Below, one piece after another: positions 1,187-42,237 of a stretch of 53,563 nucleotides of DNA. The notes below the pieces were generated by a model. The model was not told the DNA's origin. It made no database searches and saw only the letters and a list, made by a program, of their open reading frames with translations. The first letter of the stretch is position 1, and each line of letters begins with the position of its first letter. Source of the stretch: a virus (lineage: Duplodnaviria; Caudoviricetes); IMG/VR virus record IMGVR_UViG_3300006128_000015, positions 1-53,563 of that record. One strand, given 5' to 3'. The position numbers and the translations under genes were made by a program.

Positions 1187-3012
1187 TGGATATTATTACG
1201 GCGGATTTTGAAACGGCCTACTCCAAAGACTATTCATTAACTAAGGTAACCACTGAAGAATATATCCGCCACCCGGACTTCGAGGTGATTGGTGTAGCTG
1301 TGCAGGTTAACGACGGCGAGCCGCAGTGGTTCAGTGGGACCAAGGAGAATACCAAAGAATGGCTGGACCAGTTTGACTGGGGTAACTCCGTCGTTATCGC
1401 GCACAACGCCATGTTTGATGTGGCTATCCTTAGCTGGCATTTTGATATTAAGCCTAAGCGTATTGCAGACACGCTAAGTATGGCACGAGCGTTGCACGGT
1501 GCGGAAGGCATATCACTGTCACTCAAAAGCCTAGCAGAATATTACAAGCTCGGGATCAAGGGCGACGAGGTGCTTAACGCGCTAGGCAAACGCCGTATAG
1601 ATTTTAACAAGTGGGACTTGGCCGCCTACGGCAGCTACTGCTGCAATGACGTTGCGCTTACATACGCGCTGTTTGCAAAACTAGCGCCACAACTACCACC
1701 AACAGAAATGCGGCTAATCGACCTGACTATCCGTATGTTTTCAGAACCGGTGCTGGTCTTATATGAAGGGGGTTTAGCAGACCATCTGGAGAGCGTGAAG
1801 GACAAGAAGGCCGCGCTCATGGAGCTCGTGGACGCCGAGAAAACTGACATCATGTCTAACCCGAAGTTGGCGGGCCTGCTCCGCGATATGGGTGTCGAGC
1901 CGCCGATGAAAACTAGCCCCACGACGGGCAAAGAGACTTACGCTTTCGCTAAGAACGACGAGGCGTTTAAAGAGCTACTGGAGCATGAGAACCCCGCAGT
2001 GCAGGCGCTGGTTGCGGCTAGGCTGGGCGTTAAATCGACCCTCGAAGAAACCCGGACGCAGAGGTTTATCGACATTGCGAAGCGCGGGCGGCTACCAATT
2101 CCCCTACGCTACTACGCCGCACACACCGGGCGTTTTGGCGGCGACGACAAAATTAACATGCAAAATATTCCTCGGGGCTCGCCGCTCAAACATTGTATCG
2201 TTGCACCGTTGGGGCAGCTGTTGATTGACTGTGACTCGTCGCAGATTGAAGCGCGCACACTTGCATGGCTGGCGGGACAGGATGACTTGGTGCAAGCGTT
2301 CGAGAACGGGGAGGACGTATATAAGATTATGGCGTCTTCGATATATGGCAAGCCGGTAGAAGACATTACCAAGAGTGAACGGTTTGTAGGTAAAACAACG
2401 ATCCTCGGTGCAGGCTACGGGATGGGGGCCAAAAAGTTTCAAGCACAGCTGAAGACATTCGGGGTGGATACGGACCTAACCGAATGCGAGCGCATTATCC
2501 GCGTCTACCGAGAGACATATCCAAAAATCCCGGAGCTTTGGGCGCAAGCCGGGCGGGCACTGGAGGCTATGCTACAAAATGCGACTGCACCTATAGGTCG
2601 TGACGGGGTTGTAGAGGTAGTTACATGTAACCGGGTAAAGCTACCTAGCGGTCTGCACATCACCTACCCCAACCTTAGAAAGCAGAGCATGCTGGGGAGC
2701 CAGCATACGGAGACAGTCTACGACACCAAGAAGGGGCGTGCTGTTATCCCTAACCGGATATATGGCGGCAAGATGGTGGAGAATCTGTGCCAAGCGCTCG
2801 CGCGAATTATTATTGCTGAACAGATGCTGATGATTTCCCGTAGGTTCAAAGTAGCTATGACCGTGCACGATAGTGTGGTTGCCGTCATCCCCCAAAATGA
2901 GGTTGACAATGCCAAGGAGTTCGTCGAGACATGTATGCGGATACGGCCTAAATGGGCGATGGGATTGCCTCTCGGCTGTGAGAGCAAGGTAGGAGCAACT
3001 TATGGCGGATGA
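1183..3012 (+). CDS. polA: family A DNA polymerase with 3'-5' exonuclease
   Basis: Exonuclease motifs DFET, HNAMFD and YCCND; HTGRF; motif A DSSQIEAR; motif B RFVGKTTILGAGYG; motif C VHDS. Confidence 0.96.
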   Translation: MMDIITADFETAYSKDYSLTKVTTEEYIRHPDFEVIGVAVQVNDGEPQWFSGTKENTKEWLDQFDWGNSVVIAHNAMFDVAILSWHFDIKPKRIADTLSMARALHGAEGISLSLKSLAEYYKLGIKGDEVLNALGKRRIDFNKWDLAAYGSYCCNDVALTYALFAKLAPQLPPTEMRLIDLTIRMFSEPVLVLYEGGLADHLESVKDKKAALMELVDAEKTDIMSNPKLAGLLRDMGVEPPMKTSPTTGKETYAFAKNDEAFKELLEHENPAVQALVAARLGVKSTLEETRTQRFIDIAKRGRLPIPLRYYAAHTGRFGGDDKINMQNIPRGSPLKHCIVAPLGQLLIDCDSSQIEARTLAWLAGQDDLVQAFENGEDVYKIMASSIYGKPVEDITKSERFVGKTTILGAGYGMGAKKFQAQLKTFGVDTDLTECERIIRVYRETYPKIPELWAQAGRALEAMLQNATAPIGRDGVVEVVTCNRVKLPSGLHITYPNLRKQSMLGSQHTETVYDTKKGRAVIPNRIYGGKMVENLCQALARIIIAEQMLMISRRFKVAMTVHDSVVAVIPQNEVDNAKEFVETCMRIRPKWAMGLPLGCESKVGATYGG

Positions 3013-3256
3013 AATTCACCCTGTAGTGGCATTGTTGGTCGCGCGCCGTGAGTCACACCCGCAAGAGTTTGAAATACTCTATGAAAAGGGATGGAGCGCG
3101 GCGCAAGGGCAGGGGCGCTGGGAGGGTGCGTTGGCTATGCTCGGGTGGTATTTAAACCCCGCAGAACGCGAGCTTCTACATGCGAACCGGAGAGAGCTGA
3201 TATTTGATAAGGTGTATGAGTACGTAGCCGAGCGGCTGCTGGTAGGAGCAGACTAA
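3002..3256 (+). CDS. hypothetical protein, paralog of the next ORF
   Basis: AGGAGC RBS; motif HPVVALLVARRESHPQEF. Confidence 0.8.
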   Translation: MADEIHPVVALLVARRESHPQEFEILYEKGWSAAQGQGRWEGALAMLGWYLNPAERELLHANRRELIFDKVYEYVAERLLVGAD

Positions 3257-39384: not shown

Positions 39385-39690
39385 TCACCCATAAATAACC
39401 GTGGCGGATGCCACGTTGGTGACCGTACCATATACGCCAGTGCGGGCAAGTACACCTTCACCGGGAAGCAAAAGGTAAGTATTACCCGCATTAGCGGCTG
39501 TAGGGGTGTTGATCGTAGCAAGCGTAGCCCCACCATTACCGTCGGTAATAACTACAGACCCAGCAGAAGCGCCGCTAACAATGTACACGCCTTTAACGCG
39601 CACACGACCAATATTGACGCTACTCTGGTCCTGAAATGCCCCCGTTGAGGTGAGGGGCTGGCTTACTTTGACGTCTGTTTGCATGGTCAT
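39385..39690 (-). CDS. small virion protein
   Basis: MQTDVK...RVKGV...LPGEGVL...VIYG; GAAGGAG RBS. Confidence 0.75.
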   Translation of the reverse strand: MTMQTDVKVSQPLTSTGAFQDQSSVNIGRVRVKGVYIVSGASAGSVVITDGNGGATLATINTPTAANAGNTYLLLPGEGVLARTGVYGTVTNVASATVIYG

Positions 39691-39720
39691 TCGCTTTCTC
39701 CTTCAGAGATTAAACTCTAA

Positions 39721-40245
39721 TTAGGAAGTGGCGAACGGAGTAGCCAGCGTGCCCGAACCAATGATCTGCCCCTGCACCAGATAGGTGTTGGCCGCAATAG
39801 CAACAACGCTGACAACCGAACCAGCAATACCGCCGGTCGTGGTGCCGTTCAGATTGACCGAGCGAATCGTCGTACCATTAGCAACGTACGTGCTGGTAGC
39901 GCCGCCAGCGGCAGCAATGTCCACCGAACCAAGCAGGTAGTCGCCAGTGCCGGTAACGATCTTAACCGCAGTGGCAGTCGAAGGCAGCACGAAGTTGTAC
40001 ACGACGCCTTGGTTGTTGGTATTGGAGGGGTCCTGACCGGGGCCGGACGACTGCCCGTTAGCAGTAACATTAACCGCCGGAAGAGTGATCGTGGCGGTAG
40101 CCGCAGTAATAGACAGGTAACGACCCGCATGCAGAGCGGGGTCAAGCGTCAGCGTAGCAGTCGAAACAGGAACGACTGCACTGGGGCCCTGCTGGTACAG
40201 GCCCGACAGCGAACGAACGGGACCCTGAAAAGTAGTACGAGGCAT
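39721..40245 (-). CDS. virion (head fibre / decoration-like) protein
   Basis: TTFQGPVRS...HAGR...ITLPA...LNGTTTGG...ATPF. Confidence 0.75.
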   Translation of the reverse strand: MPRTTFQGPVRSLSGLYQQGPSAVVPVSTATLTLDPALHAGRYLSITAATATITLPAVNVTANGQSSGPGQDPSNTNNQGVVYNFVLPSTATAVKIVTGTGDYLLGSVDIAAAGGATSTYVANGTTIRSVNLNGTTTGGIAGSVVSVVAIAANTYLVQGQIIGSGTLATPFATS

Positions 40246-40257
40246 GATTTATCTCCG

Positions 40258-40329
40258 CGTAGTAGCACATCCTCGTACAGTCTCTACTACGTCTGCTAGG
40301 CCAGTCTGTACGAGTATTAATCCTAGACG
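40258..40329 (-). ncRNA. structured leader RNA (predicted double pseudoknot)
   Basis: Three interleaved complementary pairs of 5, 9 and 8 bp, ending at the GGAG RBS. Confidence 0.6.
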
Positions 40330-40336
40330 TATTGCT

Positions 40337-40365
40337 GTGGTACCACGTTGTTGTGTAGTTGGAAA
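40337..40365 (-). promoter_or_regulatory. possible promoter for the structured leader
   Basis: TTTCCA, 17 bp spacer, TACCAC with an extended TG, on the - strand. Confidence 0.4.
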
Positions 40366-40369
40366 GTAG

Positions 40370-41212
40370 TTATTTGTAGCGGAAGACAAGTCCCGCGTGC
40401 GGGCCTTTAGCTAGAGGCTTACCGGATACTAGCGCACGCCGCAGCGTGGGCATCTTCAAGCCGTAGTAGTTGAGCACCGCCGTCAGACTAGGAAACTCAG
40501 TATTAGTAGTCACTTCCATTACGGCTTTGCTCATCTTCAACTTAGACTCTTCTGTGTGCTGTTTGCCCAGCCAGTTCTGATTGCCTGTGTTGGCCTCCGC
40601 CAGCTTGCGGCGGTGTTCTTCGGTACGGGCGTGCCCCTTTGCATTCTGATTACCCTTAAGCGCTTCAGACATACGTTTCCGCGTCTCTTCAGAAGGCACG
40701 AACTTACCCCCGCGCCCCTCGGCCAAAACGCGCTGTACTTTAGCACTGATTTTGGCTTTAGTTTCTTCCGCGTGTGCTTTACCCCGGCGTGGCTGGTAAT
40801 CGGGGTCTTCATACCGCCGCTTTACACCGGCAGATATAGCCGTGAGCTCACTTTCTTTTTTGGGGCGTTCAAAATTAGGGTGCAGCTCTCTAGCTACCCC
40901 ACGCCACGGTGCACCCGACCGAAGCCCCGCGTTATAGCAACACGGTTGCCCGACATACTCTTGCAGCCAACGATCTTCCGCCGCTTGTAGGCTTGCTACG
41001 TCTGCGACTTCTTCCATGATCTCAAACTTAAAGCACTCCTCACCGTATTTATTCCATGCGGCTTGAAGATGCGGTGTATGATGAACCCCCCGCCGAAGTT
41101 TGCTGCGGTGTGTACGGAACCGCTCCTTCGAGTTGATGGTACTCCCCACATAAAACTTTTGGTTAACTATGTTGCGTATGCGGTAGATGACGGGGTGAGT
41201 GGATTTAGACAC
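40370..41212 (-). CDS. GIY-YIG homing endonuclease with NUMOD3-like repeats
   Basis: VIY.I.N......YVGS....ERF..H, HLQAAWNKYG; repeated HxEE(T/S)K.K(I/M)S; likely start is GTG 41212 after GGGAG. Confidence 0.9.
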   Translation of the reverse strand: MSKSTHPVIYRIRNIVNQKFYVGSTINSKERFRTHRSKLRRGVHHTPHLQAAWNKYGEECFKFEIMEEVADVASLQAAEDRWLQEYVGQPCCYNAGLRSGAPWRGVARELHPNFERPKKESELTAISAGVKRRYEDPDYQPRRGKAHAEETKAKISAKVQRVLAEGRGGKFVPSEETRKRMSEALKGNQNAKGHARTEEHRRKLAEANTGNQNWLGKQHTEESKLKMSKAVMEVTTNTEFPSLTAVLNYYGLKMPTLRRALVSGKPLAKGPHAGLVFRYK

Positions 41213-41239
41213 AGGTAATCTCCCATTCGGTATAAGTCT

Positions 41240-41267
41240 TATATACAAACAACACCGAGTGGGTCAA
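41240..41267 (-). promoter_or_regulatory. promoter of the GIY-YIG gene
   Basis: TTGACC, 16 bp spacer, TATATA, immediately downstream of the capsid terminator. Confidence 0.55.
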
Positions 41268-41272
41268 TACCT

Positions 41273-41307
41273 AAAAAGAAACCCCCCGGATTTCTCCGAG
41301 GGGTCTC
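41273..41307 (-). terminator. intrinsic terminator after the major capsid gene
   Basis: GACCCCTCGGA-GAAA-TCCGGGGGGTT followed by TCTTTTT on the - strand. Confidence 0.88.
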
Positions 41308-41331
41308 CAAAAACCTAGGGTTTTTAAAGGT

Positions 41332-42237
41332 TTAGCCCTGCGAGCCGTAAACCCCGAGCGGATCAGACCATCCGAAGCTATAACGCTCACGGGCCTTGTA
41401 ACGGACGTTGCCCGTGTCGAAGTCTCCATCCATGGAGTTCGCCAGCGGCGAACGGACGAAGTGCTTCAGACCGTTAGGAACGTCCGTGGTCAGGAACCAC
41501 GACAGGTTGTTGGTCAGGAAGTGGTTGACCGCGTAACCATCAGGGATCGACCCGTTGTTCTTCAGGGCGTTGACGTCGTTATCGGCAGTCGAGACGCGCA
41601 GTTCGGTCTCAAGCAGTCGGGTAGCAACGAACATCAGGCTCGGGGGAACAATGAGCTTCTTCGGCTTCGCAGCGATCAGCAGGCCACGTTCGTCGGTCCA
41701 AGCGGCAATCTGAATCACGGCGGCTTCGAGGGCCGTCTCGTTCAGGTCAGCGTTGGTCGCGGAGGTGTTGCTGTTGACGCCACCGGTAACCACCGGGTGC
41801 GAGGTCGAGAAGAGGGGCTGACCATCACCACCAGCGTAGCTCGAATTGAACCCGTTGTTGAGGATGTTAGCGCCCTTAACCTGCTTGGTATAGGCCATGG
41901 CGCGAGCCAGAGCCTTGGTGTAGCGGGACGACAGCGAGTCGTAGAGGTTATCCTCAATCGCTTCTTCCGTCAGCGAGAACCCGAGGGCAATCGTTTCGTG
42001 GTTGTAGCGAGCGGTGAAAACTTCCTGCGCGTTGTCGTACGCAATAGCCGAACCTTCGTTCTTAACCGGAGCAGCCGAGAAGCCCGACAGCTTGGTTTCT
42101 TCTTCGAACGAACGCTCAGAGGTCTCAGTCTCGAAGATTTCCTTATGCTCTTCGCCGTAGCGAGCATATTCCAGACCGAACAGGGCGTTCAGACCGGGGA
42201 GGAGTTCCTTGAGAAGTTGTGCGCGTGAAATCGCCAT
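41332..42237 (-). CDS. major capsid protein
   Basis: MAISRAQLLKELLPGLNALFGLEY, EEAIEDNLY, KLIVPP, DFDTGNVRYKARERYSFG; strong RBS and its own terminator. Confidence 0.92.
   Translation of the reverse strand: MAISRAQLLKELLPGLNALFGLEYARYGEEHKEIFETETSERSFEEETKLSGFSAAPVKNEGSAIAYDNAQEVFTARYNHETIALGFSLTEEAIEDNLYDSLSSRYTKALARAMAYTKQVKGANILNNGFNSSYAGGDGQPLFSTSHPVVTGGVNSNTSATNADLNETALEAAVIQIAAWTDERGLLIAAKPKKLIVPPSLMFVATRLLETELRVSTADNDVNALKNNGSIPDGYAVNHFLTNNLSWFLTTDVPNGLKHFVRSPLANSMDGDFDTGNVRYKARERYSFGWSDPLGVYGSQG

Follow-up and report, generated by a model that had tools for sequence, protein, structure and literature searches.

Results

A predicted knotted leader at the capsid locus

The window analysed here is the whole of a 53,563-nucleotide (nt) sequence from a tailed phage (Duplodnaviria; Caudoviricetes; IMG/VR record IMGVR_UViG_3300006128_000015). 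Along its - strand, a major capsid protein gene is followed by a terminator-like hairpin, a homing endonuclease gene and an open reading frame (ORF) of 174 amino acids (Table 1). The gap on the capsid-gene side of this ORF, between it and the endonuclease gene, is 124 nt long and holds the element that concerns us: an RNA leader in which five helices would form two pseudoknots around a central helix, and which ends at the ribosome-binding site of the ORF.

Such a double pseudoknot had been proposed from the letters of the window (hereafter, the original prediction), and its three perfect, interleaved helices a, b and c are indeed present, in the order a-b-a'-c-b'-c' on the - strand. The RNA string quoted for them matches the window apart from a trivial offset (it begins at 40328, not 40329), and helix c does terminate 1 nt before the GGAG of the ribosome-binding site. 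Four points were not part of the original prediction: hairpins d and e, the link with a single gene family, how large that family is, and the homing endonuclease gene next to the leader. The two hairpins are built alike, each with a 3-bp stem and a 6-nt loop. The loop of e consists of any nucleotide plus the 3' arm of helix a, while the loop of d is the 3' arm of helix c. Nucleotides 40259-40258 of the window belong to a strand of hairpin d or, alternatively, extend helix c to 8 bp. The unpaired junction is conserved: an A before hairpin e, AC after it, and AGA before the 3' arm of b (AGA in 258 of 284 parsed sequences, CGA in 15). The window contains a single match to our covariance model R1, at 40224-40336 (109.8 bits).

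Table 1. Features of the locus, listed along the - strand in window coordinates.
Feature	Position	Strand	Details
Major capsid protein gene, Mu-like gpT type	41332..42237	-	PHROG 371; Pfam Phage_capsid_4, Mu-like_gpT
Intrinsic-terminator-like hairpin and T-run after capsid gene	41277..41308	-	computed
Promoter-like TTGACC, 16 nt, TATATA	41240..41267	-	putative, found by reading; stricter scan did not report it
Free-standing GIY-YIG + NUMOD3 homing endonuclease gene	40370..41212	-	context, outside the RNA
Whole leader element	40257..40326	-	five helices, two pseudoknots around central helix (predicted fold)
Helix a	40326-40322 with 40300-40296	-	CUAGG with CCUAG; perfect pairing
A/U-rich linker AUUAAUA	40315..40321	-	separates 5' arms of a and b; sequence variable in alignments
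Helix b	40314-40306 with 40280-40272	-	CUCGUACAG with CUGUACGAG; perfect, 9 bp
Hairpin e	40293..40304	-	CUG 40304-40302, G 40301, loop CCUAG 40300-40296, CAG 40295-40293
Helix c	40291-40284 with 40265-40258	-	CGUAGUAG with CUACUACG; perfect, 8 bp
Family-wide core of helix c 5' arm, UAGUAG	40289-40284	-	conserved AC 40292-40291 before core
Junction AGA before 3' arm of b	40281..40283	-	conserved
Hairpin d	40257..40268	-	GUG 40268-40266, loop CUACUA 40265-40260, CGC 40259-40257
Shine-Dalgarno GGAG	40256-40253	-	directly 3' of hairpin d
AUG of downstream gene	40245-40243	-	sequence
174-amino-acid ORF	39721..40245	-	probable decoration/cement/spike protein; N-terminal arm M-x-x-T-T-F-x-G-P-V

Pairing this dense had been judged improbable by chance, and the control agrees. 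Across 100,000 mononucleotide shuffles of this 72-nt stretch, perfect helices of 8 bp or longer turned up in 1,787 and of 9 bp or longer in 421. Only one shuffle had two such helices that cross (one of 8 bp or longer, the other of 9 bp or longer), and in none (0/100,000) did a further crossing helix of 5 bp or longer arise as well. The nested-only folding energy of the 130-nt intergenic RNA is unremarkable (-28.2 kcal/mol, z = -0.39), a value that is uninformative because the folding program cannot model pseudoknots. Two further pairing candidates were discarded: the outer helix of the nested fold, which is built from window-specific upstream sequence that is not conserved, and the extra 5-bp pairings CGUCU/AGACG and UAGCA/UGCUA, which are likewise specific to the window and not conserved across classes.

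Compensatory changes in related leaders

Relatives were gathered in two ways. Three DNA patterns derived from the core of the element were scanned against viral contigs and gave at least 120 matches each. Among the matches listed, the canonical-core pattern yielded 104 distinct segments (alignment A2), a pattern with a changed first base of helix c yielded 89 (with 3 chance-like), and a pattern with CUAGG as the loop of hairpin e yielded 113, with 4 chance-like matches (L338, L380, L412 and L449; we number loci with an L prefix). Pooled, the three scans comprise 293 distinct segments among the matches listed. The second sample was independent of the RNA: the peptide M[AG]xTTFxGPV matched at least 600 stretches of viral contigs, and 76 loci were confirmed. 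By visual reading these hold 49 five-helix leaders (one a duplicate), 18 reduced leaders, 7 that resemble the leader of Roseobacter phage CRP-902, and 2 truncated ones. Model R1 scored 66 of the 76 at E <= 0.01. Alignment A6 (51 sequences) unites 48 five-helix loci from this sample with the window, L177 and L190, and leaves out the duplicate, the truncated loci and the reduced and CRP-902-like forms.

Helix b covaries in both samples. All nine of its pairs changed on both sides in A2 (95.0% of cells paired) and again in A6 (98.0% of cells paired), and at least 7 of the 9 pairs form in 289 of the 293 pooled segments. G-U pairs are frequent in this helix, which fits the - (coding) strand being the RNA. 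For helix c, a perfect run of at least 6 bp joins a sequence's own two arms in 249 of 289 cases, compared with 688 of 5,780 when arms are borrowed from other members. At least 12 distinct compensatory arm pairs occur (hand count over 34 listed runs), among them UAGUAG/CUACUA, GUAUAG/CUAUAC, ACAUGC/GCAUGU, AUGCAA/UUGCAU, CAUACA/UGUAUG, CUUAUA/UAUAAG and CCUCAA/UUGAGG. In A2 itself the inner 6 bp of c are invariant, and of the two outer pairs that helix c has in the window, one forms in just 12 and the other in 27 of the 104 sequences.

Helix a is likewise invariant in A2, and so is the CUG/CAG stem of hairpin e in the same canonical set. The idea that a and e represent invariant 'aptamer' sequence was nevertheless rejected as an artefact of the search patterns, since both covary in the peptide-selected sample: in A6, four of five pairs of helix a and all three pairs of hairpin e changed on both sides, with 100% of cells paired in e and 88% in a, the latter figure being lowered by register slips. 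Counted free of register, a Watson-Crick run of at least 5 bp joins the arms of helix a in 50 of the 51 A6 sequences; among 2,110 control pairings, 76 have one. We saw more than 10 arm pairs of helix a (CUAGG/CCUAG, CCUAG/CUAGG, CCGGG/CCCGG, CCGGA/UCCGG, CUGGG/CCCAG, CUGAG/CUCAG, CCAAG/CUUGG and UCGGGG/CCCCGA among them), and six stem types of hairpin e (CUG/CAG, CAG/CUG, CCG/CGG, CGG/CCG, CCA/UGG and UCG/CGA). The covariation score of A6 is 0.770; shuffles give 0.223 (0 of 500 reach 0.770) and slid partners at most 0.139. An apparent 'strand swap' of helix a between freshwater and marine leaders was set aside as weak evidence by itself, because CUAG is a palindrome and the change amounts to a fifth G-C pair on either side of it.

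Hairpin d, with the stem GNG/CNC in the canonical set, is more variable. Its middle pair is UA in 91 of 104 sequences, CG in 10, UG in 2 and AU in 1, and is unpaired in none; all three of its pairs form in 147 of 232 sequences, as compared to 21.6% in the control. Within helix b, the pair second from the top (columns 34/62 of A2 and 37/72 of a further alignment, A4) is recurrently non-standard, mostly A opposite G, and is unpaired in 15 of 104 sequences of A2 and 24 of 94 of A4. Rather than noise, this could be a non-canonical pair that is conserved.

The claim that the - strand encodes a structured RNA is thus borne out: covariation in homologous leaders was found for all three of the helices first proposed. 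Conservation and compensatory changes in hundreds of related phage contigs put the element beyond chance. Of the two topologies originally considered, linked pseudoknots are favoured and mutually exclusive switch states are not, because a, b, c and e share no nucleotides and compensatory change keeps each of them. All helices would therefore coexist in one knotted fold.

Relatives in cultured phages and in catalogues

A blastn search of the region against 50,697 phage records had a sole match, Phage DSL-LC04 (103 nt, 77.9% identity), confined to the leader; the same search with a class II leader (see below) gave no match in those records. DSL-LC04 has no endonuclease gene here: capsid gene, terminator and leader are followed by a gene that carries the annotation 'cement protein'. 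The pairwise alignment of this phage with the window contains three compensatory changes in helix b. Among cultured phages found via their capsid protein, R1 matched Pelagibacter phage HTVC023P (E 3.7e-10), HTVC027P (E 1.7e-4), Phage 023Pt_psg01 (E 0.03) and Roseobacter phage CRP-902 (E 0.76), and gave no match in Planktothrix phage Pag-Yong1. The leader thus occurs in a cultured SAR11 phage, a statement that holds for HTVC023P. A scan of genome contigs also found canonical leaders in seven contigs of metagenome-assembled genomes (L204-L210), in bins assigned to Chitinophagales, Ignavibacteria, Microbacteriaceae, Chloroflexota, Dehalococcoidia and Alphaproteobacteria. These are probably mis-binned phage contigs, and we therefore call no host from them.

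The element could not be assigned to a named RNA family in the original prediction, and a scan with the 4,227 models of Rfam 15, judged by each family's gathering score, leads to the same result. In the window (39900-40700, E <= 10) nothing fell on the element, the sole match being MAT2A_C outside it (40641-40697, + strand; 17.6 bits vs 47). In eight variant loci (43,199 nt, E <= 1) no leader matched, and the sole match was L20_leader, upstream of the leader in L332 (26.7 bits vs 58.7). Models of small self-cleaving ribozymes (twister, pistol, hatchet, hepatitis delta virus (HDV)-like and hammerhead) had no match in that part of the window or in these eight loci. Literature searches by keyword and by sequence string found no description of the motif, and the string returned unrelated primer matches. 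The accessible portion of the main text of Weinberg et al., 2017 (PMC5737381) discusses no capsid-gene motif, and the glutamine riboswitch of a myophage is, going by the accessible portion of that article (PMC9004378), a subject other than this leader.

Contact with the ribosome-binding site

The 3' arm of helix c lies at the start of the gene across the family. In the 284 parsed sequences it ends 0-6 nt before a Shine-Dalgarno (SD)-like tetramer in 208 and overlaps either the SD (16 sequences) or the AUG (24, of which L109, at least, is misparsed); no start was found in 30, and 6 were classed as 'other'. Counted from the arm onward, the tetramer begins 0-5 nt after it in 218 of 232 sequences. 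Some subclasses go further and form the pairing with the SD directly (CCUCAA with UUGAGG). Many variants use the first 3 nt of the SD as the 3' strand of hairpin d, as in CUC/GAG-G or CUU/AAG-G. Where the start codon is paired, the pairing is compensated: GCCA with AUGGC in 23 sequences and CCCA with AUGGG in 1, and, among the peptide-selected loci, UAGCCA with AUGGCUA vs ACCCA with AUGGGU. Class II loci such as L214 and L269 have start-codon pairing of this kind.

Two further subclasses depart from the five-helix form. In the CRP-902-like leaders (L334, which is CRP-902 itself, at ~2470-2550; L493, L494, L501, L522, L525, L528 and L529), as in the class II loci, the inner strand pairs with the start codon region in place of an upstream loop, and a separate small hairpin holds the SD. 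The reduced leader consists of helix b, a conserved GACGCGUAUAGUCGACGG module and a CCUAG-AGA stretch pairing with the SD CUAGGAGG; it is found in L331 (HTVC027P, ~2985-3050), L335 (023Pt_psg01, ~2975-3030) and part of L487-L520, and L507 carries one compensatory change within the module.

The downstream gene

The 174-amino-acid protein has no sequence match in PHROG, Pfam or the PDB, and no RNA-binding family appears among its PHROG and Pfam results. Its AlphaFold2 model, built with 16 homologues, has a predicted local distance difference test score (pLDDT) of 76, with residues 1-18 disordered. The top structural match is the capsid spike of Pseudomonas phage Pa223 (9ny6_C; Z 10.8, root-mean-square deviation 2.2 A over 98 residues; Foldseek E 7.9e-5), and gp9/gp10-like virion domains fall within about 1-2 Z units of it. 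From the model, it is likely to be a virion-surface protein. The proposal that the leader abuts the ribosome-binding site of a virion gene accordingly stands, with a 'probable' attached to the gene: GGAG lies directly 3' of hairpin d, and the model resembles the Pa223 spike.

The proteins encoded downstream of the leader are diverse. Of 109 complete ones, 22 align over about their full length with that of the window (43-73% identity); the others have just their first 10-59 residues in common with it. Across ~200 related loci the conserved part is the first 16-30 residues (M-A-x-T-T-F-S/Q-G-P-V-x-S-x-N-G-F), and the remainder, of about 60 to more than 300 residues, is in many cases unrelated. 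The pattern resembles a conserved arm that anchors the protein to the capsid, joined to surface domains that can be exchanged.

The leader goes with the gene for this arm. From 80 loci fetched by a divergent capsid protein alone, R1 matched exactly 5, which coincide with the 5 loci where an M-A-x-T-T-F-x-G-P-V gene is present; none of the remaining 75, which have other downstream genes, matched R1. The element therefore belongs to the decoration gene and not to the capsid gene.

The upstream neighbourhood

The ORF between terminator and leader matches PHROG 314 (2.1e-35) and the Pfam families GIY-YIG (7.8e-12) and NUMOD3 (1.2e-18). The ORF list starts it at a TTG at 41248; a start at GTG 41212, giving a protein that begins M-S-K-S-T-H-P-V-I-Y-R-I-R-N, is likelier because the promoter-like site (41267-41240) and a GGGAG (41224-41220) precede it. 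A small hairpin, AAAAACC-CUA-GGUUUUU (41310-41331, -), lies between the capsid stop codon and the terminator and holds another CCUAGG.

In 90 of 112 loci the leader follows the capsid gene (40-92% identity); in 10 it follows a GIY-YIG-like gene and in 12 another ORF, and one (L030) of six scanned members of this last group carries Endonuclease_7. The inserted ORFs of these 22 loci end ~12 nt or more before helix a; loci with an endonuclease gene in this slot include the window, L041, L046, L058, L062, L067, L071, L080, L091, L122 and L030. The slot that separates the capsid-gene terminator from the leader is a hot spot of insertion, and the conserved leader DNA may be a homing target.

A promoter had been suspected just upstream of the leader. 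It is not supported in the window, where a scan of 39600-41450 found no two-hexamer promoter of the sigma-70 type (0 sites). For 39721-41400 no public RNA run was listed. In relatives that do not have an inserted endonuclease gene, a -10 element does lie 7-8 nt before helix a. A match to at least 5/6 of TATAAT occurs in 79 of 102 members of the marine class and ends 7-8 nt before helix a in 69 of these 79; in the freshwater class it occurs in 59 of 182, with a gap of 7-11 nt in 44 of the 59. The marine leader therefore probably starts at helix a. Where a gene is inserted upstream, as in the window and other such loci, the leader must instead be internal to a longer RNA, or be processed from it.

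Discussion

Candidate functions

Complex pseudoknotted RNAs with conserved junction nucleotides usually serve ligand sensing, catalysis or specific protein binding. We propose, with a probability only slightly above one half (about 0.52), that the knot is a gene-specific translational operator in the 5' leader of the mRNA of a capsid-surface (decoration, cement or spike) protein. Hairpin e would sit inside the central 9-bp helix b and pair its loop with the extreme 5' segment (helix a), and hairpin d would follow b and pair its loop with a strand inside b (helix c), so that the ribosome-binding region would be held in or against the pseudoknot. Since hairpin d and helix c end at the SD, the knot would decide how easily the 30S subunit loads. 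A putative trans factor recognising the conserved junction would probably strengthen or release the knot; candidates are the ribosome, a small ligand and a protein, whether the decoration protein in its free form or some other one from phage or host. We infer all three of these, the effect on translation, its sign and the existence of an effector, from sequence.

Several observations weigh against this operator. The SD itself is unpaired in the window and in the commonest class, so its occlusion would be just steric, and a helix stacked beside the SD could equally aid 30S binding. The helices do not compete for nucleotides, and no switch is visible. A reduced form does without helices a and e, and part of the fold is therefore dispensable; hairpin d is absent or altered in most marine members. 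The conserved N-terminal arm is not notably basic, which weakens the variant in which the protein regulates its own synthesis. As for the data themselves, R1 spans ~22 coding nt, which partly drives its weaker peptide-selected matches, and the model used to fit A4 and A6 contained b, e and d from the start (not a and c).

Among the alternatives, the one that survives best, although we regard it as rather doubtful, is that the knot protects a 5' end, shielding an abundant late mRNA from decay by RNase E/RppH or RNase J and affecting translation indirectly only, like the 5' stem-loops of ompA or, topologically, exonuclease-resistant viral RNAs (xrRNAs). The marine -10 spacing would put the predicted +1 at the first paired base (69 of 79 at 7-8 nt), the freshwater gap of 7-11 nt (44 of 59) points the same way, and an intrinsic terminator usually precedes the leader, so the gene needs a stable message of its own. 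This must be set against the window, in which no promoter lies near the leader and the knot is internal, with the endonuclease gene upstream, and against the 22 of 112 loci with a non-capsid ORF upstream and L124-type loci likewise. Protection of an end would, moreover, need neither conserved junction nucleotides nor a helix aimed at the SD or AUG, and the element is confined to one gene family.

A bolder reading, which we hold to be unlikely, would make the knot a sensor, a new class of riboregulator that binds the free decoration protein or a small ligand at its conserved junction, or else a new class of self-cleaving ribozyme. Narrower, and very improbable, is the proposal that the element is a self-cleaving ribozyme or an RNase processing site which frees the decoration message from that of the capsid or endonuclease gene. 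A compact pseudoknotted fold with conserved unpaired purines, placed between two cistrons in promoter-proximal and internal contexts alike, is what such a site might look like; yet no Rfam ribozyme family matched at E <= 10 in 39900-40700 of the window or at E <= 1 in the eight variant loci, the reduced form keeps only b and c, and the strand order is unlike that known for HDV-like ribozymes. Least probable of all is a feature of the DNA (a recombination linker or homing-endonuclease target) with incidental inverted repeats: in 22 of 112 loci an endonuclease-type or other ORF has entered just upstream, and the leader and first 16-30 codons are common while the rest of the protein is swapped, but most loci have no endonuclease gene, and the arms change freely yet stay complementary, with G-U pairs on one strand, a pattern that DNA recognition does not predict, so that covariation argues against a DNA-level role as the sole explanation.

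Significance

The leader is an uncatalogued RNA that goes with a single virion gene family and packs five covarying helices into ~70 nt. In lake and ocean phages it is very common, with at least 120 matches in each of three scans of viral contigs. As an operator it would be a compact case of tailed phages controlling how much of a capsid-surface protein is made, or when, from a gene past the capsid-gene terminator, and a possible natural part for translational control. It also marks a module boundary: the leader and ~16-30 codons are kept, the remainder of the protein is exchanged, and insertions of homing endonuclease genes lie immediately upstream of the leader. Should the sensor version be true, decoration-protein synthesis would be coupled to capsid assembly or host state in highly abundant lake and ocean phages.

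Comparison with known systems

The nearest motif by location is Mu-gpT-DE, reportedly named by Weinberg and co-workers in 2017, and said to lie downstream of the Mu-like gpT gene. Location is the point in common; our leader has no Rfam match and goes with the downstream gene, not with the capsid gene. The ompA 5' untranslated region stabilisers and the xrRNAs resemble the leader in having their 5'-terminal nucleotides paired, and xrRNAs have two pseudoknots, one of which involves the 5' end. Unlike them, our element is often internal to the transcript, as in the window, and is directed at the ribosome-binding site.

The general hallmark of a riboswitch, a conserved, covarying, aptamer-like fold in a 5' leader, is found here. 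As for an expression platform, helix c and hairpin d reach up to or into the SD or AUG, and the family has no conserved mutually exclusive alternative pairing. With preQ1-II, SAM-II, SAM-V, guanidine-III and NAD+-II the element has in common a short leader, covarying stems and conserved junction nucleotides, and it places the 3'-most pseudoknot strand at or on the SD as the H-type pseudoknot translational riboswitches do. It differs from these in having two pseudoknots, in which hairpin loops pair with upstream strands, in having no Rfam match, and in preceding a virion-protein gene rather than a metabolic or transport gene, a context that suggests no ligand.

Pseudoknotted autogenous operators are known from the phage T4 gene 32 leader, E. 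coli rpsO (S15) and the alpha operon (S4). Our leader differs from them in sequence and topology, and its protein has no recognised RNA-binding domain and no RNA-binding family match; position and gene specificity are those expected of an autogenous operator. As in these systems, a gene-specific leader pseudoknot lies beside the ribosome-binding site, and the gene that it precedes encodes a structural protein, the unbound pool of which could control further production of that protein. In the alpha operon, too, the S4 site is a double pseudoknot.

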